From Yuukianura sp. NJ FZ-2021 (Eukaryota): 64,000 bases of DNA. Within the stretch, counting starts at the first letter, position 1, and each line of letters opens with the position of its first letter. The stretch is taken from positions 3,038,001 through 3,102,000 of the forward strand of contig CM102289.1 of the NCBI GenBank assembly GCA_046563655.1. The letters run 5' to 3'. The notes under the pieces were generated by a model. It saw nothing but the letters and a program-made list of their open reading frames with translations, did not search any database and had not been told where the DNA came from. Position numbers and translations under genes: made by a program. This document shows, piece after piece, positions 4,061 to 64,000 of this stretch.

Positions 4061-4638
4061 TATTGTGTCTAAATTGCATCTAATTGCATTTGTGTTGGAT
4101 TACTCTACAAGAGTTACAGTAAATCCAAAATAAAATTCTAATCGTATTATTATTCTAATCTTATAACTTATAATAAAATAATTTACGTATGCCGAAAGGT
4201 TTTACACTTGGATTCTACTCATACCACGATCGATTTGGAGTGACACTTGTCTAATGCCGAAATCATGAATGACAAAAACCGTCTCAGCAGTTGCTCTGTA
4301 CCTGCTTTCGCGAAGAAATTAACGAACTCAAAGCCAAGTATTTGAATTCTTAAGAGTCTCGTATACAACTTCTAAGTTCATAGAGGTTAGTATAATATTA
4401 CTAGTACTATAATAGTAATTACTATTATATTACTCTTATATAACCTATATAATTACTAGTAATATATTACTCTTATATAACTAGTTACAACATGATTGCC
4501 GAAAAGGGAGGTAAAAATATAGAACCAAAAACGGTAGAAGGACTCACGTAAAATTAAAGTTGAACTTACACTTACAAGATGTTATAATTTTTAACAATAA
4601 AAGTGGCGCATAACTACTGTTTCTTCAAAATAGTTTGA

Positions 4639-14899: not shown

Positions 14900-16693
14900 C
14901 TAGCAGCTTTTCAAAAGTTCTAAAACTTGTAGCGTCTCCTCGTCGCCTTCGCCGTTAGCTTCTTTCCTTTCGTCGTAGATTTCTTGAAGAAGCTTCTTGG
15001 CGTCCTTTACTTTCCCTTGTCCTTTCAAAGATGTTCCCAACTTCAAGCCGCTGAAAAACGAAGGAAATGCTAGGAATTGTTCAGTACAATTTCAGTTCGA
15101 TGTTGTGCGTGCTAAACGTTACCATTCTAACGTCTCTTGGTCATCTTTTCCCAAAACACGTTTCCTAGCTTTGTAGACATCCTGAAATATTTTGGAAGCC
15201 TCGTTGTAGCGTTTGCCCAGAAAATGAATCCGTCCCATTTCGTAGTTTGTGTCGATTGTGTCTGGATCATCTTCTCCCATCAGCTGCTTCCGTCCAGTGT
15301 GGATTTTCTTGAGGAGAGCTAAGGCCTCACTGTACTTCTCCAGGCTTATCATTACACAAGCCATTTCGTGACCCTAGATTAAACGTTTAATGGTAAGCAA
15401 TGCTTGTAATTTCCTTTTAAGTTAGACCTTGAGGAAAACTTACTGACTCCAGGGTATCCTCTTCCTGGAACCCCAATGTTTTTTTACGCTTCTGAAACGC
15501 TTCTTCGAATATCTTCAGTGCTTCTTCAAACTTTTCTTGTTCTGATAATAAGCAGCCAATTTCGTGTAGAGTTTCCAACGTATCAGAATCATCGTCTCCT
15601 AAGACTTTTCTCCTTAAATTCAGAACGTCGTCGTACATTTTGGATGCATCGTCGTACTTTCCCATTCCTGCCATCACTCCTGCTAGCTCGTGCATTGTCT
15701 CGAGTGTTCTGAAAGAAACCAAAGCGAAAAATTACAAATTGGCTGAATATTATGATGGTGATGTTTGAAGTTACGCTGGGTCTTCTTTTCCAAGTACTTT
15801 CTGGCGCCCATCCAAAACTTTGTAGTACATCTCAAGTGCTTCATCTTGTCTGTCCAGGGAGTCTAAGTTACCTGGAGAAACAGAACACAAGTTATGAAGT
15901 TTACAACGAATATTAACACATAGCTGGATCAAATTGGGCTTGATTGATTGTATGCTCTTCATACTAGCTAGTTCATGTCCCGTTTCAAGTGTTTCGGCAG
16001 CATCTTCGCCAAGAATTTTTTGCCGGGCTTTGTAGACTCTTGAATAAACCTTATGGGCTTCTTTCTTCTTCCCAGCGTCATCCAAGGCCGAAGCCAGTTC
16101 ATGTAAGGTCAGCAAGGTATTCACGTCATGCTTCCCAAGAATCTTTCGACGAGATTCGTAGACTTCATCAAACAGGTTGATTGCCAAGTCGTACTTCTGC
16201 TGGTTGGCTCGTACCGCTGCCATGTCATGCTTCGTCTGTAACGTATCCGGGTGATCTGCAAACATTGTTATCTTTAGCGTTGCGCAATGATAATCTATTT
16301 CTAATACTAATCTATTTTTTAACCATCGCCGAGGACACGCTTCCTTCCTTGAAAGACTTCGCTATAGAGCTTGAAGGCTTCGACATACTTCTCATCAGCA
16401 TCCAAAGCCGTTGCCATCTTGTTCTTGGCTTCCAATGTATCAGCGTGGTCTGGACCAAGACTGGATTTCCTTCCTTCGAAAACAATTGAAAATTTCTTGA
16501 AAGCTTCTGCAAATTTGCAGTCATCAAATAATTCATTTCCTTCCTCATATCCGGCACGGAGTTTACTCCTACTCCTTGACCTTGACCGTTGTTGACCTTG
16601 ATTGACATCCTTTGTCACACCGCACTCAACGTCAGGTCCCTCTTGGACAAATTCGGAATCTTTGGCGTCTCCTCCCGCGTACTCCTGCTCCAT
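14900..16693 (-). CDS. TPR-repeat protein (42-aa kinesin-light-chain / TPR_10-12 type), about 6 exons
   Basis: Repeated 'R.K.LG.DHPDTL.T.HE(L/M)A' units, about 10 copies; short GT-AG introns; ends LELLKSC* at 14900. Confidence 0.85.
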
Positions 16694-17265
16694 CTTATAA
16701 AGTTTCACGAAACGTGATTGTCAAAAGAAACACAGAATAAAATTCCTAGAAGAGGGAACCAAGATTATCTACGTTTTACCCAAGGAAGGCTGTCTGTCAC
16801 ACCTACATTTACTTAAACCGATTAACAATATCAAATCTTTGAATTGGCTAAAAGTTAAACCATAACAAACTGTTAAAGACGTTTATCCCTCCCAAGTTGC
16901 CGGCATCAACCGTGCCTCCAGCTTCCAGACAGAACCACACTTTCTCTGAACTCTGCTATCAGCTGATTGCAATTTTGCACGTGGTGTGGTTGACGTACAC
17001 CAACCGCGTACTCGTTGTGTATACCTCTACCGCATTACGGAACAGGTACCTGCTGCCTTGCGGTAATTGTTTCTCTGCTGTATTCGGTTGGACGCTACAC
17101 TAAACCTCGGAATCCTCTGACAGATTTGGTTTCGGTAAAAGGTAACGAACGAACGCGGATTTAATTTCGTGGTTTTAATACGTTTTGTCCAAATTCCGGG
17201 CTCCATAATTTGTTTTTGTGTTTGTTAAACAGGATTCGAGTGCTTTGGATTCAGCTGCTGCGAAG

Positions 17266-22540: not shown

Positions 22541-23109
22541 TTAGCAGTCGAGACACTCCCAAGTGACAGATCCATCCCTGAATCCTGACCGATCAAATGT
22601 GTTGGCCTCTAAATCAATAAGGTAGCCACTTGGTTCGGCGTTGTCGGTACAGCAGCCACCACAATCAGAGTCACCACAAGTGTCGCACACGACTGCGTCA
22701 ATACTTTTCCCGTTTTGCCAAATCCGAATATTTTTATTGATGAATTTGTTTTGGTCTCCGTGTGTTGAGAAGAGAGCCACAATATTGTTGTTGATTACCC
22801 ACTCATGGGATTTGGATCCACAGTAGGCAAATTGTCCTTCCCAGCGACATGCAGAGTAGTCCTCACATTCAGTGTTGCCTGGACATTGTTCATGCTCAGC
22901 ATCCGTGTACGGAGGGCTGATATTGCTTTCGCAGCACGGCGAGTAGGAACAGTAATGGGTTAATTGACCTAATTCACATTGGGAAATTGTATGTAAAACT
23001 TTTTACATTTTAACTAATTTTACAATTCTAATTTTAGTCAAAACTTACCGTTGTAGGCTGTAGACAAGCCAACAACGCCCAAAACCAAAAGTAGAGCAAG
23101 ACGTGCCAT
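22541..23109 (-). CDS. Secreted Cys-rich protein with a probable double-psi beta-barrel (RlpA/expansin/kiwellin-like) fold, 2 exons, about 160 aa
   Basis: Signal exon MARLALLLVLGVVGLSTAYN|G joined by a phase-1 GT-AG intron to QLTHYCSYSPCC...NIVALF...IRIWQNGKSIDAVVCDTCGDSDCGGCC...GYLIDLEANTF...SVTWECLDC*. 'V.DTC...C...IDL...F' is the DPBB pattern. Confidence 0.7.
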
Positions 23110-41456: not shown

Positions 41457-44400
41457 TCAAAGTGCAAATAAAGAAATACCTTTTCCAAATGCTATGAAAG
41501 GCTTACAAATTGTATCGTCGTAATTAAGTTGGCGACAAATTGTAATTCCCTTTCCATCTTCAATAGGAATTCGTACACTACGAATATTATCAAAATATGT
41601 ATCACATTTGTACAATTTTCCGTTGGATACAAAGTGTATGGTGACTGCACAACAATCTCTTCCGGACTTTTGTTTAACACTATACTGCAGTCCCATAATC
41701 CCACCATTGGTAATGTTTGATTGCAGTAAATGATTCTGTACATCTCCATGCAAAAAGTCATCAACGTACAATCGATGCAAAGAGCCGTCGTCGCCTCCAA
41801 TCACAATTATTGTGTTCACGATGTTTGGAATAACAGTCATAGCAGTGATTGATGTCGCAGCTAGCGTATAATTACGAATCGCAGGTATTCCTTTTAGAGT
41901 CCAAAAACTTTCAGAAGATGCTTCGAATCCCAAATCTATTCCCCATGCCAAAATTTCTCCGTTCGATGTGCCACAAAATATAGTCAGCTCAGATGGGGAC
42001 TCATGTCGTAAAATTTCGACTGTCGTGAGACAATGCGTCGCTCCTATTCCCTTCTGATATATTTTGCTGAATGTAAACCTTCCGTTGTATCGTATAATAC
42101 GTAGTGTTCCATCTGAGCACGCAATGAAGCCAACCAGTATCATTTTGTCTGGTGCCACTTCTGTACCACAGTCTTTTGTTAATGGAAGTAACATTGATTT
42201 GATATCCATGATCCGAAAATCCACTTCTTCTTCAAATCCAAATAGCCTTAGGCGACAATACTTCTTCAAATGACAACCTGTTTGGAACATCATCAATATA
42301 AAGTACATCTACTAATAGTAATACAAACATTAGTAAAAAATAAACAGTAGTTTTGTTATTACCATCCAAATAAAGCTTGGTAAGCACCAGTTCCGATTTA
42401 CCTCCACCACTCAGTAGAAAGCCTTCTTTGTTCGACATCAATTCTTGGTAATATACGCACCGCACGGCTGAGGTGTGATTAGAAACTGTATGAGTTTTGA
42501 CTTTCGTAAATCCTAGGCGTGGAACGTCGCTCTGGGTTCCAATATCTTCCAATCTGAAAGTAGAAATTTTGACAGCCCCATCTTCGCTTCCAGTAGCAAC
42601 AATGGTTGCCGTCTCGGAGGCAGAATAAATTTCAGTGACACTATTGATATCCTCGAGGTGAAGTCCTTCCTAAAATAACAAAAGTTTCACATCTCTTCCC
42701 AGAATATAGACTTAAAAAGATTTTGTAGATTTACCTTTATGCAATTGGTATTGCATTGATCGAGATGGAAACACACTTTGTACACACGACGGTTACGTAT
42801 ATGTGTGAAAAATCCGGTTCCATCTTTAGACATCAGAAAGTCCCAGGCACGATGAGCACCACCACAATGAGTTCTGCCTATGATCTGTTCTCGACGAAAA
42901 GAATATATAACAAAGTCCGCCTAAAATAAAAACGATTTCAAATTAAACTCACACAGTAAAAAAATTAAACAATTTTTAAAAAATGGTTTAAGGTCTTACC
43001 GAATCGTACCCGCATACAATAAGATCCTCCCGATAGATCAACAAAGTTCCAACCCAAAGAAATGGGATTGGAACAGTTTTTAAATGAGTGACTGGCTCCT
43101 CTCCATCGAAATCTTTCATACCGAAGTCTCCCTCGATATAAAAGAAATTCAGGCTCGAGTCTCTACCGCCTGTAACAAGGTGATCCTCGTACACAATTAT
43201 CCCACCAACCCCGTACTTGCTATGTCGTGCTTTAAATTCGTACAACATTTCGCCTGTTTTTCTGTTGTAGGATTTAATTTTCCCGTTGTCCAGGCCGACG
43301 AACACAACATTGTTCCAGGCAGTAGCACAATTTGTGTTGGATTTTTGTTTAGCTGCCCATTTAATCGATGCCTGAGGGATTGGTTCCACGTTGATGGTCC
43401 CATTAGAATGAGTATTCATAGACACCTCGTACATTAGCAGTGAACTCACAGTTGATATCAGCAGTTCTTGTGAAGTAATAAAATGGGTTGAAATGATTTT
43501 TTCTGGTTTTGGAATGTAAAACGTCGAATTACATCCTACTTGTAAGTCTTTTGACTCTGAAACAGAAAACAAAGTTGCTCATACGATTGAATGAAAATGA
43601 AGTGCTTTAGAAAAGTAAGTAAACGAGGAATCTCTTCAAATTGCAAAGATAATTCGAAAATGCTACTGTTTTGGAAGATTGTGGTTATGAAGTCGACGTG
43701 TCATTTTTTTTTGCACTTTTAGTTGTTTTGCTGAGTCCAGTCATAAATTAGAATTCGTATTTACCGTTTTCTAGGCGGGATAACTTATTGAAAGAAAAGG
43801 CTCCATGTAAAGTCCCCGCGACGTATATTTCTTTTCCGGGGTACCAAGAGAACGTTATATATCCTCGCCATGATTCCAGTTCATGACAGTATCGTATCGA
43901 GTCTTTGTCTAAAATGTAAATCTTCCCAGAATCCGTGGTAACCACGGAAGATGTCTCGTCAAAGGACTTCACCAGTCTAGGATAATCTGCGGACAGAAAA
44001 AATCCCAAAAGCTTAGCAAAATTAAAGTACAAAGACAAATTTACTGACCTTGACTCTTTGCTTTTGACTTCAAACGTATCGGGTTGTCTTCACTATTTGA
44101 AAACCACACAGGGCGAAGTTCACAGTATTCAGTTAGTTCGTAAGTGTGTACCGATTGAGATATGTTCCACTCATAAATACCTCCATTGTCACCTCCTGTG
44201 TACTAAATCATGCGACCGTTTCTCAAAACTGTTAAATATTTTAATTCACTTAACTCTAAAATTGAAACTGAACTCACTATTCTCCCACTACCAGGATCGT
44301 ATGCGCAAGCCCAGATTGTAGACCCACTGTGACTGCCTATTACACGATGGCGAGTTAAATCTTTCAAGGACCAAGCTACAATACTGGAATCCTACATAAC

Positions 44401-45445
44401 CAACAACTGCTTTTTAAAAATCTACCTTCAAAAGAAGATGGGTACGTAACGATAATTTACTACCTACTAGATAACTTATAAATACCTTACCTCCCCAACG
44501 CTGACTACATGATCGTGTACCAGCATTGCATTAAATATTCTCGAAGTATGCCCTTCAAGCGTTCCATGAAGTGTTACTGAGGTCCATTCCCAAGGTCGAA
44601 ATTGTGAGACGTCTGCCTCTTTAAAATCGCAATTCCAAAGTGAAACCGACCGATCATCAGACGTTGTGAGTATCAATTTGAATTCCGGATAAAATTTAAC
44701 AGAAAAAATCACGCCCTGAAAAGATTAAAAGAAGTTGCAAAATACTTCAATGTTAAATTGTTAAATTAAATGAACTAAATTAAGAAACTCTAAAAAACTA
44801 AAGCCAAAGCGAGAATTGTACCTTTGGTTGGCAGAAGGTATACAAACAGTGAATTTCGTTGTCGTGTTGTCCATCGCCGCAGAACAGTTTGCAAATGCTA
44901 ACGCAGGAGGATGTGGCAACAAAAAATAAGACGTCACTTCTCGTGCTACCCGTTATGGTGACAGAATCCGGTGCTGGAAGATAGCCTTGATAACTTGTGA
45001 CTTTCTTCTCATCTGTGTGTTCGCATGTGTCATGTAGTAACGCCGTATTGTTGAGGTCGTAAACAACACAACTGGCATCTAAACACCGCCCTGCTATAAT
45101 TTCTCCGGAGTTGGCTTCGTACAATCCGTCGAGTTTACCTAAGCTAGTTCCTCGGATACTACTATTAAATACAAGTTCTCGATAACAATACAAGGACGTA
45201 ACCAGAGCACGGACATGGATATCGCCGTCACTACTGGTACTATTGGAACAAGATGTACATGAAATGCTTGTGATTGGGCAGCCTTCCGTAAACACTTTTA
45301 CGACTTCGGGATGCCGGTTTTCAAACCCTAGGCGATAAATCAACAGATTGCTCCCAACTCCAGCCAGTATGTGTTGACGGAATACTTCAATAACCTTCAC
45401 TGGTTCACATGCCCATGACAGAATATTTAGCCGTGAGTTACCCAT
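41457..45445 (-). CDS. WDR6: WD repeat-containing protein 6 (Trm734/RTT10 homolog), multi-exon
   Basis: WDR6-type motifs 'GVIFSV...TSDDRSV.LW...GHTSRIF', 'TGGRD', 'CGGAHRAWDF', 'GLH...I', 'TGSED', 'HTSAVR', 'SGGGKSEL'. Confidence 0.8.
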
Positions 45446-45687
45446 AACAAACCAATTGTTGTAACCATAGAACTAACGAGGTACTAACGAAGTTTACCGG
45501 TAGGTGCACTAAAGATACAGAACACACTTTAACAATGCAGTTTAGAAAAATACAAACTCGCTGATTGTTTTCACTTCCTCAGCTGTTCGCGGACGCCCCT
45601 AAATATCAGATTTCTCACATCTTCTCAGACTTGAGATCTTCCCGAAGTCGAAAAACGCGAAAGAAATTTGAACAGCACCAACGCAAA

Positions 45688-48600
45688 GATAACCTACAAA
45701 TTTCATTGGTAAAGCATTTTGGTAAGGTAAACTCCCAAAATTTAGAATATTCTGTATCCGTGTCAACAACGTGCTTAGAAGCTTTAACTTTCTCCCGATA
45801 AAGAAAAAATTTGAATGTTATCTTCAACAGAAAATTTTCACACGGATTCAGCCGAAAAACCTGACAAGCAAGTTTGATAAACAACAAATTTCGTTGGTAA
45901 CGCTTCAGAAAGGACTTGAACACCCGAAATTAAAATTGTTCTGTATTTGTGTTAACAACGTGCTTAGAAGCTTTCACTTTCTCCCGATAAAGAAAAAATT
46001 TGAATGTTATCTTCAACAGAAAATTTTCACACGGATTCAGCCGAAAAACCTGACAAGCAAGTTTGATAAACAACAAATTTCGTTGGTAACGCTTCAGACA
46101 GGACTTGAACACCCGAAATTAAAATTTTTCTGTATTTATGTTAACAATGTGCTTAGAAGCTTTCACTTTCTCCGGATAAAGAAAAAATTTGAATGTTATC
46201 TTCAACAGAAAATTTTCAGACGGATTCACCCGAAAAACCTGACAAGCAAGTTTGATAAACAACAAATTTCGTTGGTAACGCTTCAGAAAGGACTTGAACA
46301 CCCGAAATTAAATTTTTTCTGTATTTGTGTTAACAACGTGCTTAGAAGCTTTCACTTTCTCCCGATAAAGAAAAAATTTGAATGTTATCTTCAACAGAAA
46401 ATTTTCACACGGATTCAGCCGAAAAACCTGACAAGCAAGTTTGATAAACAACAAATTTCGTTGGTAACGCTTCAGACAGGACTTGAACACCCGAAATTAA
46501 AATTTTTCTGTATTTATGTTAACAATGTGCTTAGAAGCTTTCACTTTCTCCGGATAAAGAAAAAATTTGAATGTTATCTTCAACAGAAAATTTTCACACG
46601 GATTCAGCCGAAAAACCTGACAAGCAAGTTTGATAAACAACAAATTTCGTTGGTAACGCTTCAGACAGGACTTGAACACCCGAAATTAAAATTTTTTTGT
46701 ATTTATGTTAACAATGTGCTTAGAAGCTTTCACTTTCTCCGGATAAAGAAAAAATTTGAATGTTATCTTCAACAGAAAATTTTCAGACGGATTCAGCCGA
46801 AAAACCTGACAAGCAAGTTTGATAAACAACAAATTTCGTTGGTAACGCTTCAGACAGGACTTGAACACCCGAAATTAAAATTTTTCTGTATTTATGTTAA
46901 CAATGTGCTTAGAAGCTTTCACTTTCTCCGGATAAAGAAAAAATTTGAATGTTATCTTCAACAGAAAATTTTCAGACGGATTCAGCCGAAAAACCTGACA
47001 AGCAAGTTTGATAAACAACAAATTTCGTTGGTAACGCTTCAGACAGGACTTGAACACCCGAAATTAAAATTTTTCTGTATTTATGTTAACAATGTGCTTA
47101 GAAGCTTTCACTTTCTCCGGATAAAGAAAAAATTTGAATGTTATCTTCAACAGAAAATTTTCAGACGGATTCAGCCGAAAAACCTGACAAGCAAGTTTGA
47201 TAAACAACAAATTTCGTTGGTAACGCTTCAGACAGGACTTGAACACCCGAAATTAAAATTTTTCTGTATTTATGTTAACAATGTGCTTAGAAGCTTTCAC
47301 TTTCTCCGGATAAAGAAAAAATTTGAATGTTATCTTCAACAGAAAATTTTCAGACGGATTCAGCCGAAAAACCTGACAAGCAAGTTTGATAAACAACAAA
47401 TTTCGTTGGTAACGCTTCAGACAGGACTTGAACACCCGAAATTAAAATTTTTCTGTATTTATGTTAACAACGTGCTTAGAAGCTTTCACTTTCTCCCGAT
47501 AAAGAAAAAATTTGAATGTTATCTTCAACAGAAAATTTTCACACGGATTCAGCCGAAAAACCTGACAAGCAAGTTTGATAAACAACAAATTTCGTTGGTA
47601 ACGCTTCAGACAGGACTTGAACACCCGAAATTAAAATTTTTCTGTATTTATGTTAACAATGTGCTTAGAAGCTTTCACTTTCTCCGGATAAAGAAAAAAT
47701 TTGAATGTTATCTTCAACAGAAAATTTTCAGACGGATTCAGCCGAAAAACCTGACAAGCGAGTTTGATAAACAACAAATTTCGTTGGTAACGCTTCAGAC
47801 AGGACTTGAACACCCGAAATTAAAATTTTTCTGTATTTATGTTAACAATGTGCTTAGAAGCTTTCACTTTCTCCGGATAAAGAAAAAATTTGAATGTTAT
47901 CTTCAACAGAAAATTTTCAGACGGATTCAGCCGAAAAACCTGGCAAGCAAGTTTGATAAACAACAAATTTCGTTGGTAACGCTTCAGACAGGACTTGAAC
48001 ACCCGAAATTAAAATTTTTCTGTATTTATGTTAACAACGTGCTTAGAAGCTTTCACTTTCTCCCGATAAAGAAAAAATTTGAATGTTATCTTCAACAGAA
48101 AATTTTCACACGGATTCAGCCGAAAAACCTGACAAGCAAGTTTGATAAACAACAAATTTCGTTGGTAACGCTTCAGAAAGGACTTGAACACCCGAAATTA
48201 AAATTTTTCTGTATTTGTGCGTTAACAACGTGCTTAGAAGCTTTCACTTTCTCCCGATAAAGAAAAAATTTGAATGTTATCTTCAACAGAAAATTTTCAC
48301 ACGGATTCAGCCGAAAAACCTGACAAGCAAGTTTGATAAACAACAAATTTCGTTGGTAACGCTTCAGACAGGACTTGAACACCCGAAATTAAAATTTTTC
48401 TGTATTTATGTTAACAATGTGCTTAGAAGCTTTCACTTTCTCCGGATAAAGAAAAAATTTGAATGTTATCTTCAACAGAAAATTTTCAGACGGATTCAGC
48501 CGAAAAACCTGACAAGCAAGTTTGATAAACAACAAATTTCGTTGGTAACGCTTCAGAAAGGACTTGAACACCCGAAATTAAAATTTTTCTGTATTTGTGT

Positions 48601-51600
48601 TAACAACGTGCTTAGAAGCTTTCACTTTCTCTCGATAAAGAAAAATTTGAATGTTATCTTCAACAGAAAATTTTCACACGGATTCAGCCGAAAAACCTGA
48701 CAAGCAAGTTTGATAAACAACAAATTTCGTTGGTAACGCTTCAGACAGGACTTGAACACCCGAAATTAAAATTTTTCTGTATTTATGTTAACAATGTGCT
48801 TAGAAGCTTTCACTTTCTCCGGATAAAGAAAAAATTTGAATGTTATCTTCAACAGAAAATTTTCACACGGATTCAGCCGAAAAACCTGACAAGCAAGTTT
48901 GATAAACAACAAATTTCGTTGGTAACGCTTCAGACAGGACTTGAACACCCGAAATTAAAATTTTTCTGTATTTATGTTAACAATGTGCTTAGAAGCTTTC
49001 ACTTTCTCCGGATAAAGAAAAAATTTGAATGTTATCTTCAACAGAAAATTTTCAGACGGATTCAGCCGAAAAACCTGACAAGCAAGTTTGATAAACAACA
49101 AATTTCGTTGGTAACGCTTCAGACAGGACTTGAACACCCGAAATTAAAATTTTTCTGTATTTATGTTAACAATGTGCTTAGAAGCTTTCACTTTCTCCGG
49201 ATAAAGAAAAAATTTGAATGTTATCTTCAACAGAAAATTTTCAGACGGATTCAGCCGAAAAACCTGACAAGCGAGTTTGATAAACAACAAATTTCGTTGG
49301 TAACGCTTCAGACAGGACTTGAACACCCGAAATTAAAATTTTTCTGTATTTATGTTAACAATGTGCTTAGAAGCTTTCACTTTCTCCGGATAAAGAAAAA
49401 ATTTGAATGTTATCTTCAACAGAAAATTTTCAGACGGATTCAGCCGAAAAACCTGACAAGCAAGTTTGATAAACAACAAATTTCGTTGGTAACGCTTCAG
49501 ACAGGACTTGAACACCCGAAATTAAAATTTTTCTGTATTTATGTTAACAATGTGCTTAGAAGCTTTCACTTTCTCCGGATAAAGAAAAAATTTGAATGTT
49601 ATCTTCAACAGAAAATTTTCAGACGGATTCAGCCGAAAAACCTGACAAGCGAAGTTTGATAAACAACAAATTTCGTTGGTAACGCTTCAGACAGGACTTG
49701 AACACCCGAAATTAAAATTTTTCTGTATTTATGTTAACAATGTGCTTAGAAGCTTTCACTTTCTCCGGATAAAGAAAAAATTTGAATGTTATCTTCAACA
49801 GAAAATTTTCAGACGGATTCAGCCGAAAAACCTGACAAGCGAGTTTGATAAACAACAAATTTCGTTGGTAACGCTTCAGAAAGGACTTGAACACCCGAAA
49901 TTAAATTTTTTCTGTATTTGTGTTAACAACGTGCTTAGAAGCTTTCACTTTCTCCCGATAAAGAAAAAATTTGAATGTTATCTTCAACAGAAAATTTTCA
50001 CACGGATTCAGCCGAAAAACCTGACAAGCAAGTTTGATAAACAACAAATTTCGTTGGTAACGCTTCAGACAGGACTTGAACACCCGAAATTAAAATTTTT
50101 CTGTATTTATGTTAACAATGTGCTTAGAAGCTTTCACTTTCTCCGGATAAAGAAAAAATTTGAATGTTATCTTCAACAGAAAATTTTCACACGGATTCAG
50201 CCGAAAAACCTGACAAGCAAGTTTGATAAACAACAAATTTCGTTGGTAACGCTTCAGACAGGACTTGAACACCCGAAATTAAAATTTTTCTGTATTTATG
50301 TTAACAATGTGCTTAGAAGCTTTCACTTTCTCCGGATAAAGAAAAAATTTGAATGTTATCTTCAACAGAAAATTTTCAGACGGATTCAGCCGAAAAACCT
50401 GACAAGCAAGTTTGATAAACAACAAATTTCGTTGGTAACGCTTCAGACAGGACTTGAACACCCGAAATTAAAATTTTTCTGTATTTATGTTAACAATGTG
50501 CTTAGAAGCTTTCACTTTCTCCGGATAAAGAAAAAATTTGAATGTTATCTTCAACAGAAAATTTTCAGACGGATTCAGCCGAAAAACCTGACAAGCGAGT
50601 TTGATAAACAACAAATTTCGTTGGTAACGCTTCAGACAGGACTTGAACACCCGAAATTAAAATTTTTCTGTATTTATGTTAACAATGTGCTTAGAAGCTT
50701 TCACTTTCTCCGGATAAAGAAAAAATTTGAATGTTATCTTCAACAGAAAATTTTCAGACGGATTCAGCCGAAAAACCTGACAAGCAAGTTTGATAAACAA
50801 CAAATTTCGTTGGTAACGCTTCAGACAGGACTTGAACACCCGAAATTAAAATTTTTCTGTATTTATGTTAACAATGTGCTTAGAAGCTTTCACTTTCTCC
50901 GGATAAAGAAAAAATTTGAATGTTATCTTCAACAGAAAATTTTCAGACGGATTCAGCCGAAAAACCTGACAAGCGAGTTTGATAAACAACAAATTTCGTT
51001 GGTAACGCTTCAGACAGGACTTGAACACCCGAAATTAAAATTTTTCTGTATTTATGTTAACAATGTGCTTAGAAGCTTTCACTTTCTCCGGATAAAGAAA
51101 AAATTTGAATGTTATCTTCAACAGAAAATTTTCAGACGGATTCAGCCGAAAAACCTGACAAGCGAGTTTGATAAACAACAAATTTCGTTGGTAACGCTTC
51201 AGACAGGACTTGAACACCCGAAATTAAAATTTTTCTGTATTTATGTTAACAATGTGCTTAGAAGCTTTCACTTTCTCCGGATAAAGAAAAAATTTGAATG
51301 TTATCTTCAACAGAAAATTTTCAGACGGATTCACCCGAAAAACCTGACAAGCAAGTTTGATAAACAACAAATTTCGTTGGTAACGCTTCAGAAAGGACTT
51401 GAACACCCGAAATTAAATTTTTTCTGTATTTGTGTTAACAACGTGCTTAGAAGCTTTCACTTTCTCCCGATAAAGAAAAAATTTGAATGTTATCTTCAAC
51501 AGAAAATTTTCACACGGATTCAGCCGAAAAACCTGACAAGCAAGTTTGATAAACAACAAATTTCGTTGGTAACGCTTCAGACAGGACTTGAACACCCGAA

Positions 51601-54600
51601 ATTAAAATTTTTCTGTATTTGTGTTAACAACGTGCTTAGAAGCTTTCACTTTCTCCCGATAAAGAAAAAATTTGAATGTTATCTTCAACAGAAAATTTTC
51701 ACACGGATTCAGCCGAAAAACCTGACAAGCAAGTTTGATAAACAACAAATTTCGTTGGTAACGCTTCAGACAGGACTTGAACACCCGAAATTAAAATTTT
51801 TCTGTATTTATGTTAACAATGTGCTTAGAAGCTTTCACTTTCTCCGGATAAAGAAAAATTTGAATGTTATCTTCAACAGAAAATTTTCAGACGGATTCAG
51901 CCGAAAAACCTGACAAGCAAGTTTGATAAACAACAAATTTCGTTGGTAACGCTTCAGACAGGACTTGAACACCCGAAATTAAAATTTTTCTGTATTTATG
52001 TTAACAATGTGCTTAGAAGCTTTCACTTTCTCCGGATAAAGAAAAAATTTGAATGTTATCTTCAACAGAAAATTTTCAGACGGATTCAGCCGAAAAACCT
52101 GACAAGCGAGTTTGATAAACAACAAATTTCGTTGGTAACGCTTCAGACAGGACTTGAACACCCGAAATTAAAATTTTTCTGTATTTATGTTAACAATGTG
52201 CTTAGAAGCTTTCACTTTCTCCGGATAAAGAAAAAATTTGAATGTTATCTTCAACAGAAAATTTTCAGACGGATTCAGCCGAAAAACCTGACAAGCAAGT
52301 TTGATAAACAACAAATTTCGTTGGTAACGCTTCAGACAGGACTTGAACACCCGAAATTAAAATTTTTCTGTATTTATGTTAACAATGTGCTTAGAAGCTT
52401 TCACTTTCTCCGGATAAAGAAAAAATTTGAATGTTATCTTCAACAGAAAATTTTCAGACGGATTCAGCCGAAAAACCTGACAAGCGAGTTTGATAAACAA
52501 CAAATTTCGTTGGTAACGCTTCAGACAGGACTTGAACACCCGAAATTAAAATTTTTCTGTATTTATGTTAACAATGTGCTTAGAAGCTTTCACTTTCTCC
52601 GGATAAAGAAAAAATTTGAATGTTATCTTCAACAGAAAATTTTCAGACGGATTCACCCGAAAAACCTGACAAGCAAGTTTGATAAACAACAAATTTCGTT
52701 GGTAACGCTTCAGACAGGACTTGAACACCCGAAATTAAAATTTTTCTGTATTTATGTTAACAACGTGCTTAGAAGCTTTCACTTTCTCCCGATAAAGAAA
52801 AAATTTGAATGTTATCTTCAACAGAAAATTTTCACACGGATTCAGCCGAAAAACCTGACAAGCAAGTTTGATAAACAACAAATTTCGTTGGTAACGCTTC
52901 AGAAAGGACTTGAACACCCGAAATTAAATTTTTCTGTATTTGCGTTAACAACGTGCTTAGAAGCTTTCACTTTCTCCCGATAAAGAAAAAATTTGAATGT
53001 TATCTTCAACAGAAAATTTTCACACGGATTCAGCCGAAAAACCTGACAAGCAAGTTTGATAAACAACAAATTTCGTTGGTAACGCTTCAGACAGGACTTG
53101 AACACCCGAAATTAAAATTTTTCTGTATTTATGTTAACAATGTGCTTAGAAGCTTTCACTTTCTCCGGATAAAGAAAAAATTTGAATGTTATCTTCAACA
53201 GAAAATTTTCAGACGGATTCAGCCGAAAAACCTGACAAGCAAGTTTGATAAACAACAAATTTCGTTGGTAACGCTTCAGACAGGACTTGAACACCCGAAA
53301 TTAAAATTTTTCTGTATTTATGTTAACAATGTGCTTAGAAGCTTTCACTTTCTCCGGATAAAGAAAAAATTTGAATGTTATCTTCAACAGAAAATTTTCA
53401 GACGGATTCAGCCGAAAAACCTGACAAGCAAGTTTGATAAACAACAAATTTCGTTGGTAACGCTTCAGACAGGACTTGAACACCCGAAATTAAAATTTTT
53501 CTGTATTTATGTTAACAATGTGCTTAGAAGCTTTCACTTTCTCCGGATAAAGAAAAATTTGAATGTTATCTTCAACAGAAAATTTTCAGACGGATTCAGC
53601 CGAAAAACCTGACAAGCGAGTTTGATAAACAACAAATTTCGTTGGTAACGCTTCAGACAGGACTTGAACACCCGAAATTAAAATTTTTCTGTATTTATGT
53701 TAACAATGTGCTTAGAAGCTTTCACTTTCTCCGGATAAAGAAAAAATTTGAATGTTATCTTCAACAGAAAATTTTCAGACGGATTCAGCCGAAAAACCTG
53801 ACAAGCGAGTTTGATAAACAACAAATTTCGTTGGTAACGCTTCAGAAAGGACTTGAACACCCGAAATTAAATTTTTTCTGTATTTGTGTTAACAACGTGC
53901 TTAGAAGCTTTCACTTTCTCCCGATAAAGAAAAAATTTGAATGTTATCTTCAACAGAAAATTTTCACACGGATTCAGCCGAAAAACCTGACAAGCAAGTT
54001 TGATAAACAACAAATTTCGTTGGTAACGCTTCAGACAGGACTTGAACACCCGAAATTAAAATTTTTCTGTATTTATGTTAACAATGTGCTTAGAAGCTTT
54101 CACTTTCTCCGGATAAAGAAAAAATTTGAATGTTATCTTCAACAGAAAATTTTCACACGGATTCAGCCGAAAAACCTGACAAGCAAGTTTGATAAACAAC
54201 AAATTTCGTTGGTAACGCTTCAGACAGGACTTGAACACCCGAAATTAAAATTTTTCTGTATTTATGTTAACAATGTGCTTAGAAGCTTTCACTTTCTCCG
54301 GATAAAGAAAAAATTTGAATGTTATCTTCAACAGAAAATTTTCAGACGGATTCAGCCGAAAAACCTGACAAGCAAGTTTGATAAACAACAAATTTCGTTG
54401 GTAACGCTTCAGACAGGACTTGAACACCCGAAATTAAAATTTTTCTGTATTTATGTTAACAATGTGCTTAGAAGCTTTCACTTTCTCCGGATAAAGAAAA
54501 AATTTGAATGTTATCTTCAACAGAAAATTTTCAGACGGATTCAGCCGAAAAACCTGACAAGCGAGTTTGATAAACAACAAATTTCGTTGGTAACGCTTCA

Positions 54601-57600
54601 GACAGGACTTGAACACCCGAAATTAAAATTTTTCTGTATTTATGTTAACAATGTGCTTAGAAGCTTTCACTTTCTCCGGATAAAGAAAAAATTTGAATGT
54701 TATCTTCAACAGAAAATTTTCAGACGGATTCAGCCGAAAAACCTGACAAGCAAGTTTGATAAACAACAAATTTCGTTGGTAACGCTTCAGACAGGACTTG
54801 AACACCCGAAATTAAAATTTTTCTGTATTTATGTTAACAATGTGCTTAGAAGCTTTCACTTTCTCCGGATAAAGAAAAAATTTGAATGTTATCTTCAACA
54901 GAAAATTTTCAGACGGATTCAGCCGAAAAACCTGACAAGCGAGTTTGATAAACAACAAATTTCGTTGGTAACGCTTCAGACAGGACTTGAACACCCGAAA
55001 TTAAAATTTTTCTGTATTTATGTTAACAATGTGCTTAGAAGCTTTCACTTTCTCCGGATAAAGAAAAAATTTGAATGTTATCTTCAACAGAAAATTTTCA
55101 GACGGATTCAGCCGAAAAACCTGACAAGCGAGTTTGATAAACAACAAATTTCGTTGGTAACGCTTCAGACAGGACTTGAACACCCGAAATTAAAATTTTT
55201 CTGTATTTATGTTAACAATGTGCTTAGAAGCTTTCACTTTCTCCGGATAAAGAAAAAATTTGAATGTTATCTTCAACAGAAAATTTTCAGACGGATTCAC
55301 CCGAAAAACCTGACAAGCAAGTTTGATAAACAACAAATTTCGTTGGTAACGCTTCAGAAAGGACTTGAACACCCGAAATTAAATTTTTTCTGTATTTGTG
55401 TTAACAACGTGCTTAGAAGCTTTCACTTTCTCTCGATAAAGAAAAATTTGAATGTTATCTTCAACAGAAAATTTTCACACGGATTCAGCCGAAAAACCTG
55501 ACAAGCAAGTTTGATAAACAACAAATTTCGTTGGTAACGCTTCAGACAGGACTTGAACACCCGAAATTAAAATTTTTCTGTATTTGTGTTAACAACGTGC
55601 TTAGAAGCTTTCACTTTCTCCCGATAAAGAAAAAATTTGAATGTTATCTTCAACAGAAAATTTTCACACGGATTCAGCCGAAAAACCTGACAAGCAAGTT
55701 TGATAAACAACAAATTTCGTTGGTAACGCTTCAGACAGGACTTGAACACCCGAAATTAAAATTTTTCTGTATTTATGTTAACAATGTGCTTAGAAGCTTT
55801 CACTTTCTCCGGATAAAGAAAAAATTTGAATGTTATCTTCAACAGAAAATTTTCAGACGGATTCAGCCGAAAAACCTGACAAGCAAGTTTGATAAACAAC
55901 AAATTTCGTTGGTAACGCTTCAGACAGGACTTGAACACCCGAAATTAAAATTTTTCTGTATTTATGTTAACAATGTGCTTAGAAGCTTTCACTTTCTCCG
56001 GATAAAGAAAAAATTTGAATGTTATCTTCAACAGAAAATTTTCAGACGGATTCAGCCGAAAAACCTGACAAGCGAGTTTGATAAACAACAAATTTCGTTG
56101 GTAACGCTTCAGACAGGACTTGAACACCCGAAATTAAAATTTTTCTGTATTTATGTTAACAATGTGCTTAGAAGCTTTCACTTTCTCCGGATAAAGAAAA
56201 AATTTGAATGTTATCTTCAACAGAAAATTTTCAGACGGATTCAGCCGAAAAACCTGACAAGCAAGTTTGATAAACAACAAATTTCGTTGGTAACGCTTCA
56301 GACAGGACTTGAACACCCGAAATTAAAATTTTTCTGTATTTATGTTAACAATGTGCTTAGAAGCTTTCACTTTCTCCGGATAAAGAAAAAATTTGAATGT
56401 TATCTTCAACAGAAAATTTTCAGACGGATTCAGCCGAAAAACCTGACAAGCGAGTTTGATAAACAACAAATTTCGTTGGTAACGCTTCAGACAGGACTTG
56501 AACACCCGAAATTAAAATTTTTCTGTATTTATGTTAACAATGTGCTTAGAAGCTTTCACTTTCTCCGGATAAAGAAAAAATTTGAATGTTATCTTCAACA
56601 GAAAATTTTCAGACGGATTCACCCGAAAAACCTGACAAGCAAGTTTGATAAACAACAAATTTCGTTGGTAACGCTTCAGACAGGACTTGAACACCCGAAA
56701 TTAAAATTTTTCTGTATTTATGTTAACAACGTGCTTAGAAGCTTTCACTTTCTCCCGATAAAGAAAAAATTTGAATGTTATCTTCAACAGAAAATTTTCA
56801 CACGGATTCAGCCGAAAAACCTGACAAGCAAGTTTGATAAACAACAAATTTCGTTGGTAACGCTTCAGAAAGGACTTGAACACCCGAAATTAAATTTTTC
56901 TGTATTTGCGTTAACAACGTGCTTAGAAGCTTTCACTTTCTCCCGATAAAGAAAAAATTTGAATGTTATCTTCAACAGAAAATTTTCACACGGATTCAGC
57001 CGAAAAACCTGACAAGCAAGTTTGATAAACAACAAATTTCGTTGGTAACGCTTCAGAAAGGACTTGAACACCCGAAATTAAATTTTTTCTGTATTTGTGT
57101 TAACAACGTGCTTAGAAGCTTTCACTTTCTCCCGATAAAGAAAAAATTTGAATGTTATCTTCAACAGAAAATTTTCACACGGATTCAGCCGAAAAACCTG
57201 ACAAGCAAGTTTGATAAACAACAAATTTCGTTGGTAACGCTTCAGACAGGACTTGAACACCCGAAATTAAAATTTTTCTGTATTTGTGTTAACAACGTGC
57301 TTAGAAGCTTTCACTTTCTCCCGATAAAGAAAAAATTTGAATGTTATCTTCAACAGAAAATTTTCACACGGATTCAGCCGAAAAACCTGACAAGCAAGTT
57401 TGATAAACAACAAATTTCGTTGGTAACGCTTCAGACAGGACTTGAACACCCGAAATTAAAATTTTTCTGTATTTATGTTAACAATGTGCTTAGAAGCTTT
57501 CACTTTCTCCGGATAAAGAAAAAATTTGAATGTTATCTTCAACAGAAAATTTTCAGACGGATTCAGCCGAAAAACCTGACAAGCAAGTTTGATAAACAAC

Positions 57601-60600
57601 AAATTTCGTTGGTAACGCTTCAGACAGGACTTGAACACCCGAAATTAAAATTTTTCTGTATTTATGTTAACAATGTGCTTAGAAGCTTTCACTTTCTCCG
57701 GATAAAGAAAAAATTTGAATGTTATCTTCAACAGAAAATTTTCAGACGGATTCAGCCGAAAAACCTGACAAGCGAGTTTGATAAACAACAAATTTCGTTG
57801 GTAACGCTTCAGACAGGACTTGAACACCCGAAATTAAAATTTTTCTGTATTTATGTTAACAATGTGCTTAGAAGCTTTCACTTTCTCCGGATAAAGAAAA
57901 AATTTGAATGTTATCTTCAACAGAAAATTTTCAGACGGATTCAGCCGAAAAACCTGACAAGCAAGTTTGATAAACAACAAATTTCGTTGGTAACGCTTCA
58001 GACAGGACTTGAACACCCGAAATTAAAATTTTTCTGTATTTATGTTAACAATGTGCTTAGAAGCTTTCACTTTCTCCGGATAAAGAAAAAATTTGAATGT
58101 TATCTTCAACAGAAAATTTTCAGACGGATTCAGCCGAAAAACCTGACAAGCGAGTTTGATAAACAACAAATTTCGTTGGTAACGCTTCAGACAGGACTTG
58201 AACACCCGAAATTAAAATTTTTCTGTATTTATGTTAACAATGTGCTTAGAAGCTTTCACTTTCTCCGGATAAAGAAAAAATTTGAATGTTATCTTCAACA
58301 GAAAATTTTCAGACGGATTCACCCGAAAAACCTGACAAGCAAGTTTGATAAACAACAAATTTCGTTGGTAACGCTTCAGACAGGACTTGAACACCCGAAA
58401 TTAAAATTTTTCTGTATTTATGTTAACAACGTGCTTAGAAGCTTTCACTTTCTCCCGATAAAGAAAAAATTTGAATGTTATCTTCAACAGAAAATTTTCA
58501 CACGGATTCAGCCGAAAAACCTGACAAGCAAGTTTGATAAACAACAAATTTCGTTGGTAACGCTTCAGAAAGGACTTGAACACCCGAAATTAAATTTTTC
58601 TGTATTTGCGTTAACAACGTGCTTAGAAGCTTTCACTTTCTCCCGATAAAGAAAAAATTTGAATGTTATCTTCAACAGAAAATTTTCACACGGATTCAGC
58701 CGAAAAACCTGACAAGCAAGTTTGATAAACAACAAATTTCGTTGGTAACGCTTCAGACAGGACTTGAACACCCGAAATTAAAATTTTTCTGTATTTATGT
58801 TAACAATGTGCTTAGAAGCTTTCACTTTCTCCGGATAAAGAAAAAATTTGAATGTTATCTTCAACAGAAAATTTTCAGACGGATTCAGCCGAAAAACCTG
58901 ACAAGCAAGTTTGATAAACAACAAATTTCGTTGGTAACGCTTCAGACAGGACTTGAACACCCGAAATTAAAATTTTTCTGTATTTATGTTAACAATGTGC
59001 TTAGAAGCTTTCACTTTCTCCGGATAAAGAAAAAATTTGAATGTTATCTTCAACAGAAAATTTTCAGACGGATTCAGCCGAAAAACCTGACAAGCGAGTT
59101 TGATAAACAACAAATTTCGTTGGTAACGCTTCAGACAGGACTTGAACACCCGAAATTAAAATTTTTCTGTATTTATGTTAACAATGTGCTTAGAAGCTTT
59201 CACTTTCTCCGGATAAAGAAAAATTTGAATGTTATCTTCAACAGAAAATTTTCAGACGGATTCAGCCGAAAAACCTGACAAGCAAGTTTGATAAACAACA
59301 AATTTCGTTGGTAACGCTTCAGACAGGACTTGAACACCCGAAATTAAAATTTTTCTGTATTTATGTTAACAATGTGCTTAGAAGCTTTCACTTTCTCCGG
59401 ATAAAGAAAAAATTTGAATGTTATCTTCAACAGAAAATTTTCAGACGGATTCAGCCGAAAAACCTGACAAGCGAGTTTGATAATCAACAAATTTCGTTGG
59501 TAACGCTTCAGACAGGACTTGAACACCCGAAATTAAAATTTTTCTGTATTTATGTTAACAATGTGCTTAGAAGCTTTCACTTTCTCCGGATAAAGAAAAA
59601 ATTTGAATGTTATCTTCAACAGAAAATTTTCAGACGGATTCACCCGAAAAACCTGACAAGCAAGTTTGATAAACAACAAATTTCGTTGGTAACGCTTCAG
59701 ACAGGACTTGAACACCCGAAATTAAAATTTTTCTGTATTTATGTTAACAACGTGCTTAGAAGCTTTCACTTTCTCCCGATAAAGAAAAAATTTGAATGTT
59801 ATCTTCAACAGAAAATTTTCACACGGATTCAGCCGAAAAACCTGACAAGCAAGTTTGATAAACAACAAATTTCGTTGGTAACGCTTCAGAAAGGACTTGA
59901 ACACCCGAAATTAAATTTTTCTGTATTTGCGTTAACAACGTGCTTAGAAGCTTTCACTTTCTCCCGATAAAGAAAAAATTTGAATGTTATCTTCAACAGA
60001 AAATTTTCACACGGATTCAGCCGAAAAACCTGACAAGCAAGTTTGATAAACAACAAATTTCGTTGGTAACGCTTCAGACAGGACTTGAACACCCGAAATT
60101 AAAATTTTTCTGTATTTATGTTAACAACGTGCTTAGAAGCTTTCACTTTCTCCCGATAAAGAAAAAATTTGAATGTTATCTTCAACAGAAAATTTTCACA
60201 CGGATTCAGCCGAAAAACCTGACAAGCAAGTTTGATAAACAACAAATTTCGTTGGTAACGCTTCAGAAAGGACTTGAACACCCGAAATTAAATTTTTCTG
60301 TATTTGCGTTAACAACGTGCTTAGAAGCTTTCACTTTCTCCCGATAAAGAAAAAATTTGAATGTTATCTTCAACAGAAAATTTTCACACGGATTCAGCCG
60401 AAAAACCTGACAAGCAAGTTTGATAAACAACAAATTTCGTTGGTAACGCTTCAGACAGGACTTGAACACCCGAAATTAAAATTTTTCTGTATTTATGTTA
60501 ACAATGTGCTTAGAAGCTTTCACTTTCTCCGGATAAAGAAAAAATTTGAATGTTATCTTCAACAGAAAATTTTCAGACGGATTCAGCCGAAAAACCTGAC

Positions 60601-63600
60601 AAGCAAGTTTGATAAACAACAAATTTCGTTGGTAACGCTTCAGACAGGACTTGAACACCCGAAATTAAAATTTTTCTGTATTTATGTTAACAATGTGCTT
60701 AGAAGCTTTCACTTTCTCCGGATAAAGAAAAAATTTGAATGTTATCTTCAACAGAAAATTTTCAGACGGATTCAGCCGAAAAACCTGACAAGCGAGTTTG
60801 ATAAACAACAAATTTCGTTGGTAACGCTTCAGACAGGACTTGAACACCCGAAATTAAAATTTTTCTGTATTTATGTTAACAATGTGCTTAGAAGCTTTCA
60901 CTTTCTCCGGATAAAGAAAAAATTTGAATGTTATCTTCAACAGAAAATTTTCAGACGGATTCAGCCGAAAAACCTGACAAGCAAGTTTGATAAACAACAA
61001 ATTTCGTTGGTAACGCTTCAGACAGGACTTGAACACCCGAAATTAAAATTTTTCTGTATTTATGTTAACAATGTGCTTAGAAGCTTTCACTTTCTCCGGA
61101 TAAAGAAAAAATTTGAATGTTATCTTCAACAGAAAATTTTCAGACGGATTCAGCCGAAAAACCTGACAAGCGAGTTTGATAAACAACAAATTTCGTTGGT
61201 AACGCTTCAGACAGGACTTGAACACCCGAAATTAAAATTTTTCTGTATTTATGTTAACAATGTGCTTAGAAGCTTTCACTTTCTCCGGATAAAGAAAAAA
61301 TTTGAATGTTATCTTCAACAGAAAATTTTCAGACGGATTCACCCGAAAAACCTGACAAGCAAGTTTGATAAACAACAAATTTCGTTGGTAACGCTTCAGA
61401 CAGGACTTGAACACCCGAAATTAAAATTTTTCTGTATTTATGTTAACAACGTGCTTAGAAGCTTTCACTTTCTCCCGATAAAGAAAAAATTTGAACGTTA
61501 TCTTCAACAGAAAATTTTCACACGGATTCAGCCGAAAAACCTGACAAGCAAGTTTGATAAACAACAAATTTCGTTGGTAACGCTTCAGAAAGGACTTGAA
61601 CACCCGAAATTAAATTTTTCTGTATTTGCGTTAACAACGTGCTTAGAAGCTTTCACTTTCTCCCGATAAAGAAAAAATTTGAATGTTATCTTCAACAGAA
61701 AATTTTCAGACGGATTCAGCCGAAAAACCTGACAAGCAAGTTTGATAAACAACAAATTTCGTTGGTAACGCTTCAGACAGGACTTGAACACCCGAAATTA
61801 AAATTGTTCTGTATTTGTGTTAACAACGTGCTTAGAAGCTTTCACTTTCTCCCGATAAAGAAAAAATTTGAATGTTATCTTCAACAGAAAATTTTCACAC
61901 GGATTCAGCCGAGAAACCTGACAAGCAAGTTTGATAAACAACAAATTTCGTTGGTAACGCTTCAGACAGGACTTGAACACCCGAAATTAAAATTTTTCTG
62001 TATTTATGTTAACAATGTGCTTAGAAGCTTTCACTTTCTCCGGATAAAGAAAAAATTTGAATGTTATCTTCAACAGAAAATTTTCAGACGGATTCAGCCG
62101 AAAAACCTGACAAGCAAGTTTGATAAACAACAAATTTCGTTGGTAACGCTTCAGACAGGACTTGAACACCCGAAATTAAAATTTTTCTGTATTTATGTTA
62201 ACAACGTGCTTAGAAGCTTTCACTTTCTCCCGATAAAGAAAAAATTTGAACGTTATCTTCAACAGAAAATTTTCACACGGATTCAGCCGAAAAACCTGAC
62301 AAGCAAGTTTGATAAACAACAAATTTCGTTGGTAACGCTTCAGACAGGACTTGAACACCCGAAATTAAAATTGTTCTGTATTTGTGTTAACAACGTGCTT
62401 AGAAGCTTTCACTTTCTCCCGATAAAGAAAAAATTTGAATGTTATCTTCAACAGAAAATTTTCACACGGATTCAGCCGAAAAACCTGACAAGCAAGTTTG
62501 ATAAACAACAAATTTCGTTGGTAACGCTTCAGACAGGACTTGAACACCCGAAATTAAAATTTTTCTGTATTTATGTTAACAATGTGCTTAGAAGCTTTCA
62601 CTTTCTCCGGATAAAGAAAAAATTTGAATGTTATCTTCAACAGAAAATTTTCAGACGGATTCAGCCGAAAAACCTGACAAGCAAGTTTGATAAACAACAA
62701 ATTTCGTTGGTAACGCTTCAGACAGGACTTGAACACCCGAAATTAAAATTTTTCTGTATTTGTGTTAACAACGTGCTTAGAAGCTTTCACTTTCTCCCGA
62801 TAAAGAAAAAATTTGAATGTTATCTTCAACAGAAAATTTTCACACGGATTCAGCCGAAAAACCTGACAAGCAAGTTTGATAAACAACAAATTTCGTTGGT
62901 AACGCTTCAGACAGGACTTGAACACCCGAAATTAAAATTTTTCTGTATTTATGTTAACAACGTGCTTAGAAGCTTTCACTTTCTCCCGATAAAGAAAAAA
63001 TTTGAATGTTATCTTCAACAGAAAATTTTCACACGGATTCAGCCGAAAAACCTGACAAGCAAGTTTGATAAACAACAAATTTCGTTGGTAACGCTTCAGA
63101 CAGGACTTGAACACCCGAAATTAAAATTTTTCTGTATTTATGTTAACAACGTGCTTAGAAGCTTTCACTTTCTCCCGATAAAGAAAAAATTTGAACGTTA
63201 TCTTCAACAGAAAATTTTCACACGGATTCAGCCGAAAAACCTGACAAGCAAGTTTGATAAACAACAAATTTCGTTGGTAACGCTTCAGAAAGGACTTGAA
63301 CACCCGAAATTAAAATTTTTCTGAATTTGTGTTAACAACGTGCTTAGAAGCTTTCACTTTCTCCCGATAAAGAAAAAATTTGAATGTTATCTTCAACAGA
63401 AAATTTTCAGACGGATTCAGCCGAAAAACCTGACAAGCAAGTTTGATAAACAACAAATTTCGTTGGTAACGCTTCAGACAGGACTTGAACACCCGAAATT
63501 AAAATTGTTCTGTATTTGTGTTAACAACGTGCTTAGAAGCTTTCACTTTCTCCCGATAAAGAAAAAATTTGAATGTTATCTTCAACAGAAAATTTTCACA

Positions 63601-64000
63601 CGGATTCAGCCGAGAAACCTGACAAGCAAGTTTGATAAACAACAAATTTCGTTGGTAACGCTTCAGACAGGACTTGAACACCCGAAATTAAAATTTTTCT
63701 GTATTTATGTTAACAATGTGCTTAGAAGCTTTCACTTTCTCCGGATAAAGAAAAAATTTGAATGTTATCTTCAACAGAAAATTTTCAGACGGATTCAGCC
63801 GAAAAACCTGACAAGCAAGTTTGATAAACAACAAATTTCGTTGGTAACGCTTCAGACAGGACTTGAACACCCGAAATTAAAATTTTTCTGTATTTATGTT
63901 AACAACGTGCTTAGAAGCTTTCACTTTCTCCCGATAAAGAAAAAATTTGAACGTTATCTTCAACAGAAAATTTTCACACGGATTCAGCCGAAAAACCTGA
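45688..64000. repeat. 189-bp tandem satellite array, about 96 head-to-tail copies, running off the window end; higher-order repeats
   Basis: Monomer aagctttcactttctcc(c/g)gataaag...gtgcttag recurs every 189 bp (ORF track spacing 189). Only about 8-10 recurrent variable sites; one HindIII (AAGCTT) and one HpaI (GTTAAC) site per monomer; degenerate partial monomer at 45688-45790. Confidence 0.99.

Follow-up and report, generated by a model that had tools for sequence, protein, structure and literature searches.

A 189-bp satellite array, probably specific to one locus, between two divergent genes of Yuukianura sp. NJ FZ-2021

The stretch of DNA analysed here (the window) comprises 64,000 nucleotides of Yuukianura sp. 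NJ FZ-2021, taken from contig CM102289.1, hereafter C7 (C7:3,038,001-3,102,000), of a 98.66 Mb assembly with 22 contigs. It ends inside a tandem array of 189-bp monomers that an initial annotation had described as a possibly centromeric satellite. Judged from sequence comparison, the array is most probably a locus-specific, non-coding interstitial satellite (a large variable number tandem repeat, or VNTR) that grew in place between two divergent genes, a WD40 beta-propeller gene and QTRT1, and has no centromere role. Three properties of such a locus were found: the monomers run head to tail, they occur at a single locus and they are non-coding.

The array and its single locus

Tandem Repeats Finder (TRF) reports a period of 189 at 45750-64000, with 96.6 copies and 98% matches, and cutting the sequence into monomers gave 97 anchors and 96 full monomers within the window (83 of the 96 are 189 bp long, and there are 29 sequence types). 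Both results bear out the 189-bp satellite array originally placed at 45752..64000. On the + strand the array begins at 45774, fills the rest of the window to 64000 and continues to extended position 72639 (C7:3,110,639), extended positions being the window numbering carried on into the adjoining C7 sequence to the right. Its right end lies 8.6 kb beyond the window, and the whole array holds 121 monomers in 22,814 bp, with a mean pairwise monomer identity of 98.1%. The monomer had been called AT-rich with short dyads. Both traits are less marked than this suggests. GC is 0.333 in the array and 0.37-0.375 in the flanks, and any special dyad content is only marginal: the longest palindrome, 10 bp, is equalled by 27% of shuffles and the seven six-base palindromes by 3.9%.

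An exact 24-mer from the monomer has 121 forward and 0 reverse matches genome-wide, all 121 within the array, and a second monomer 24-mer searched with up to 3 mismatches likewise has 121 forward and 0 reverse matches. Total length and chromosomal distribution, which the initial annotation had proposed as a check, are therefore 22.8 kb and one locus. Searches for the monomer as a dispersed element, which are insensitive to old relatives, gave no match outside the array in the assembly; a transposon-derived satellite was rejected because no dispersed copy was found elsewhere in the genome. When C7 was sampled in 120 stretches of about 2.5 kb (one per 85 kb), the only match to the 189-bp monomer was one 38-base hit (E 0.004).

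Block duplications and layered growth

The monomers fall into two main haplotypes plus recombinants, as first described: of 120 neighbouring pairs, 117 have matching states at site 186 and at site 23 of the monomer that follows, and within monomers sites 23 and 68 are concordant in 114 of 121. Rare variants also recur as linked sets (159del with 177C, and 22T with 31del). The rare motif TTCACCCG has eight copies, at 46225, 51330, 52652, 55296, 56618, 58318, 59639 and 61338, and the last six spacings (1322, 2644, 1322, 1700, 1321 and 1699) reproduce exactly those quoted in the annotation; the coordinates listed there give the frame start, which precedes the motif by 106 bp, and they lack the copy at 46225. 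Two further series held up: GAGAAACC stands at 61911 and 63612, which confirms the pair of 'gagaaacc' variants 1701 bp apart, and GAACGT stands at 61493, 62248, 63193 and 63949, so that a spacing reported as 4+5 monomers is in fact 4+5+4.

These variants mark repeated blocks. The recurrence at 3966 bp (21 monomers) noted from the sequence is real: 49745-52955 recurs at 53711-56921 (overall span 49745..56921, + strand, 17 monomers) with 3 differences in 3212 columns, and over all 21 monomers there are 15 differences in 3968. A zone of seven-monomer units with the type string CABABED occupies 51635..61641 (+); the five copies compared there (at 51635, 55600, 57300, 58622 and 60320) are 0-3 letters apart, whereas 60 randomly chosen in-register blocks of seven differ by 24 letters on average, and the nine-monomer spacings in this zone come from two extra monomers between copies. 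The distal zone, 61454..64000 (+), carries a partial 9-mer repeat in which 5 of 9 monomers are shared.

Periodicity was assessed on the 112 full monomers that precede a long interspersed nuclear element (LINE) inserted in the array (30 types, one homopolymer indel ignored), over 40 lags with a max-statistic correction and 5000 shuffles. Corrected p values were 0.014 at lag 7, 0.0002 at lag 9, 0.002 at lag 16, 0.0016 at lag 21 and 0.018 at lag 30, and the longest repeated type string was 10, against at most 6 in 1000 shuffles. The 7-, 9- and 21-mer periods claimed at the outset as nested higher-order repeats (HORs) thus exceed shuffled expectation, and multi-monomer units are more alike than monomers or random blocks are. 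The units are weaker than that name implied, with about 6 copies of the 7-mer (interrupted), 1.8 of the 21-mer and, for the distal 9-mer, about 1.5; no unit made up of diverged monomers recurs in tandem in many copies. Since 7-mer copies are near-identical and monomers are 98.1% identical overall, the periods reflect the recent duplication of blocks that a few variants make recognisable, and not one unit repeated in a long tandem series.

Could undirected turnover produce such a pattern? In a toy neutral model in which blocks are duplicated and deleted at random and mutations arise, with runs matched for type number, the observed autocorrelation excess was reached in 32% of 44 runs at a mean block of 4 and, at a mean block of 8, in 43% of 127 and 41% of 27; the observed longest repeat was reached in 27%, 66% and 70% of the same matched runs. 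Neutral block turnover is therefore a plausible source of the periodicity, as far as a model of this kind can suggest.

The ends of the array differ from its interior. Old-type ('B') monomers were defined by five diagnostic sites that agree with the diverged left edge, and the old-type fraction from left to right is 0.52 in the first five monomers (45774..46718, +), 0.20 in the next 16, 0.26 in the following 62, 0.56 in 30 and 0.62 in the last 8; the distal zone up to the LINE is the part at 0.56. To the left lies a diverged edge monomer at 45568..45773 (+; blastn E 7e-7), 123-328 bp upstream of the start codon of the WD40 gene. Against 1000 flank windows, the half nearer the array (45688-45773; 72% identity with the consensus) gives p<0.001, and the outer stretch (45568-45687) aligns only weakly and with gaps (p=0.006). 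On the right, the edge is a diverged partial copy of 58 bases at extended 72642-72699, beyond which no monomer similarity was detected (p = 0.6). The edges come within 123 bp of the start codon of the WD40 gene and 218 bp of that of QTRT1. Diverged edges together with old-type monomers at both ends support layered growth in place. The earlier description of the array as young, actively homogenising and expanding in layers agrees with the 98.1% identity, the near-identical 7-mers, the diverged edges and the ends rich in old-type monomers. The edges themselves may be the source of the monomer or decayed copies of it; either fits.

A history that would account for these features begins with an intergenic segment of about 190 bp duplicating head to tail. 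Blocks of several monomers would then have been copied and deleted, again and again, by unequal exchange or by slippage during replication, and the copied blocks, carrying their few point variants with them, would give rise to the 7-, 9- and 21-mer periods. Less recombination at the edges would have kept older sequence there, and the array may be tolerated because either gene would still have a short proximal promoter of its own next to the adjoining edge.

Other samples carry related sequence. Part of the left junction is present in five DNA runs from two studies, four of which were examined, all as contigs: X1-X3 belong to one sample, which may be the source of the assembly, and X4 to another sample and study. 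The monomer contig of X4 loops back after 189 bases and contains both site-68 states. The flanking haplotype of X3 is also that of X4 and departs from the reference at many positions; in addition, both runs have a variant at monomer position 54 that occurs in 0 of the 121 assembled monomers; this fits turnover between haplotypes. Over window 43000-45700, two flanking haplotypes about 3% apart were seen among runs of one sample label, one of them shared with X4. Monomer and flank depths were about 33 and 4.5 in X4, 780-880 and 33 in X3, 1500-2900 and mostly 100-300 in X2, and 45,000-62,000 and mostly 140-340 in X1, ratios that do not give a copy number.

Competing explanations

What defines a centromere is CENP-A, and satellites are also known from sites outside centromeres (PMC6471113). 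If the 189-bp array were nevertheless a functional centromere of C7, young or repositioned, it would be a chromosome-specific satellite with an inserted LINE, and several features suit that idea: a monomer of nucleosome scale, high homogeneity, a layered structure and an intact LINE, which recalls the Drosophila centromeres of 101-171 kb that are enriched for a non-long-terminal-repeat (non-LTR) element (PMC11917152). We consider it improbable all the same. The array is only 22.8 kb long, occurs at one locus and lies directly between two start codons that are 123-218 bp away. The initial annotation had named a short interstitial array as one half of what would speak against its suggestion, and that half is what was found. 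Periodicity of the observed kind is common in the neutral model, and the 3′ end of the LINE has 1 match in the genome, hence it represents no family common to arrays. A centromeric satellite might be expected to be abundant on several chromosomes, but a 127-bp satellite has 3380 matches and a 59-bp satellite 2988, whereas the monomer has 121; a centromeric satellite might also be expected to form the largest array of its chromosome, of about 100 kb or more, and the comparison is 22.8 kb against 113 kb. Gene-poor, repeat-rich flanks were not found either, but the flanks of the 127-bp block lack them too, so this carries little weight.

The five-fold larger block in question lies 2.1 Mb away on C7 and is common to other scaffolds. 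Its 127/128-bp satellite (the 3380 genome-wide matches are to a 24-mer with at most 2 mismatches) forms a block of about 113 kb at C7:827,083-939,845, with edges located and interior sampled, and in subsamples it recurs as single blocks on C3 (6.65-6.73 Mb), on C4 (8.45-8.48 Mb) and on the unplaced C9 (0.274 Mb). Comparison of this satellite with the 189-bp monomer shows no relationship (best E 0.23). By its sequence distribution the 127-bp satellite is the better centromere candidate on C7, the best seen and as yet unproven. The C3 block contains a strand switch, and near 1.06 Mb the C7 sequence is broken by a gap of 100 N. The AT-rich 59-bp satellite lies near the ends of C2 and C6 and in mid-C7 at 5.04-5.055 Mb, where it is possibly the scar of a fusion or inversion. 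Unrelated local arrays are common on C7: tandem repeats take up the whole of 4 of the 120 sampled stretches (periods 38, 128, 59 and 49) and more than 30% of 6 (periods 38, 128, 59, 45, 49 and 46). For centromere type in springtails, the literature search found no usable paper, and PMC4359364 makes no mention of the group.

A different origin is conceivable, if unlikely: the satellite was born in place by roughly 120-fold amplification of a piece of the divergent promoter of QTRT1 and the WD40 gene (taken here as WDR6-like), leaving a length-variable promoter multimer that tunes or uncouples both. The monomer would then be an amplified ancestral divergent promoter and the array, with about the same slight probability, a copy-number-variable spacer, insulator or enhancer for the two genes. 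The lack of any monomer copy elsewhere in the assembly agrees with this, as do monomer-like edges that reach to 123 and 218 bp from the start codons and leave little unique promoter, and the presence of the array in a second sample with another flanking haplotype. Decay at array ends also gives diverged edges, however, and the direction of descent is not shown by them; moreover, 0 of 80 metagenome QTRT1 loci, examined as an outgroup for the gene pair, had WD40 exons or the monomer. Against a regulatory function, the LINE and a probable polymorphic transposon in the same intergenic space suggest loose constraint. Metagenome contigs gave 0 matches to the monomer 24-mer, and a narrow open-access search for satellites born in bidirectional promoters found no matching paper, which does not prove their absence. 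If the promoter origin were true, the start codons would have been pushed 27 kb apart with each gene keeping a diverged edge copy as promoter, and the locus would preserve a dated history of how a satellite arose from regulatory DNA.

An assembly artefact, whether in the higher-order periods or in the length of the array, is very improbable. The evidence from runs consists of contigs, and the ratio of monomer to flank depth ranges from about 7-fold to about 200-fold between runs (again without giving a copy number), which leaves some room for doubt. Yet there is not a single N in 112 kb across the locus, the copies at a lag of 21 are not identical (their longest exact match is 1814 bp), rare variants recur as linked sets, unlike random error, and both site-68 states occur in an independent sample. 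A repetitive protein encoded by the array is hardly credible. One monomer frame is stop-free over 63 codons, giving an open frame of 844 codons from 45726 (45726-48260), but it contains no ATG, 13% of 3000 dinucleotide shuffles also have such a frame, 20 of 119 monomers shift it, 6 of the 7 commonest substitutions change the residue and there is no Pfam match. A coding role was rejected on these grounds, the frame being attributable to chance, and so was a structured RNA role, given no Rfam match at E<=1 over 45300-46400.

Several points weigh against a locus-specific interstitial satellite with no centromere role. The case against a centromere role is drawn from sequence and is therefore indirect, and the pattern searches behind the single locus are blind to relatives more than about 12% diverged. 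A contig of X2 leaves the monomer at window 45857 and enters at least 255 letters that start like a diverged monomer; this look-alike has 0 matches in the assembly at 2 mismatches. The 127-bp satellite was placed on only 3 of the 8 chromosome-scale scaffolds (6.6-15.5 Mb, C22 left out) plus one unplaced scaffold, in subsamples, and the repeat content of the flanks fails to separate the two satellites (in a partial test, interspersed repeat makes up 1.1% around the 189-bp array and 0.8% around the 127-bp block). In the neutral model, 6 of 12 settings had no matched run and 3 of 12 had one or two (7 of 12 had no more than one), and a mean block length of 2 yields no verdict; with so few settings matched, the model shows plausibility only.

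Neighbouring features and known systems

The array separates two divergent genes whose start codons are 27,472 bp apart. On the left, on the - strand, a multi-exon WD40 beta-propeller gene occupies 41460..45445 with a probable ATG at 45445 (exon frames, with provisional joins) and a Pfam WD40 match at E 1.4e-5, below the cut-off. We take it to be WDR6/Trm734-like from its motif pattern; searches of PDB, Atlas, Pfam, representative sequences and homologues returned generic WD40 or nothing and do not confirm the name. On the right, on the + strand, QTRT1 starts at extended 72917 (Pfam TGT E 5e-37; best PDB hits QTRT1, E 6e-42). If the WD40 gene is WDR6-like, two genes for modification of tRNA position 34 stand head to head and share a promoter region. 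Genes appear to be dense in the array flanks, where stop-free frames of at least 120 codons occur in 17 of 22 two-kb bins on one side and in 13 of 19 on the other. Elsewhere in the window, open frames presumably correspond to UGT, P450, GMC oxidoreductase, peroxidase and aminopeptidase N genes, a content that would fit the compact genome of an arthropod and probably of a springtail. A 39-bp minisatellite of 5.2 copies (3860-4061) lies between two UGT-like genes. On the - strand, a cysteine-rich frame of 153 codons at 22541-23002 gives the impression of a secreted fungal or microbial-type protein and might be a transferred gene, and TPR-repeat frames at 15417-16720, which we would liken to kinesin light chain, are split into several pieces and could belong to a gene that is broken or has multiple exons.

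The LINE is full-length (4 kb), lies in the array at extended 67099-71146 on the - strand and encodes an open reading frame 1 (ORF1) of 295 codons and an endonuclease-reverse transcriptase ORF2 of 944 codons; it carries a poly-A tail and is flanked by what looks like a target duplication of 4 bases. ORF1 and ORF2 are in one frame with a single stop between them. The blocks on either side differ at 6 of 923 columns, and because the LINE is in only one of these near-identical blocks, its insertion is younger than the last distal duplication. A 22-mer from the 3′ end has 1 match genome-wide, and no ORF2 relative was found in the 120 sampled C7 stretches or around the 127-bp block; a satellite-targeting LINE family was rejected accordingly. 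Near the left edge, at window 45650-45657, loose contig ends of X1 and X2 carry a single terminal repeat in inverted copies, on either side of what looks like an 8-bp target duplication. This insertion, absent from the assembly, is a probable polymorphic miniature inverted-repeat transposable element (MITE), presumably hAT-like, whose terminal repeat has 84 matches genome-wide, often paired about 470-500 bp apart.

Among known systems, Arabidopsis CEN178 has duplication-type HORs in megabase arrays on every chromosome and loads CENH3. The likeness to the 189-bp array is that periods come from a few variants shared among very similar monomers through local block duplications; the difference is that the present array covers 23 kb at one site only. 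In alpha satellite, the monomers of an HOR are 20-40% apart and each HOR has hundreds of copies, whereas monomers here differ by 1.9% and units reach 1.5-6 copies. Primate alpha-satellite HORs resemble the array in their head-to-tail, near-nucleosome monomers, multi-monomer periods and younger interior with older edges, but alpha satellite is megabases long, present on all chromosomes and binds CENP-A (PMC2588610, PMC6471113). Closer parallels are found away from centromeres. The human 61-bp Xp22.33 VNTR, HsatII and GAATG arrays also exceed 10 kb at one locus and in part have HOR-like periods, and unequal crossing over is invoked for the HORs of such non-centromeric human arrays (PMC2588610); here the unit is instead of nucleosome scale, 189 bp, and sits in the divergent-promoter gap of a compact arthropod genome. 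Euchromatic satellites of Drosophila (the ananassae subgroup, PMC11917152; CDSTR198 and CDSTR54 of D. koepferae, PMC13553610) share units of about 190 bp and form intergenic arrays of up to a few hundred copies away from centromeres, but those families are dispersed over many sites and the 189-bp array is at one locus in the assembly.

In its present state the 189-bp array is a tidy case of satellite turnover, small and assembled from end to end. It shows that a block of only 23 kb can develop nested HOR-like periods and that such periods do not mark a centromere. The 127-bp satellite offers the better starting point for work on the centromeres of this genome. The importance of the 189-bp array would rise if its monomer proved to be amplified promoter DNA that affects both neighbouring genes.

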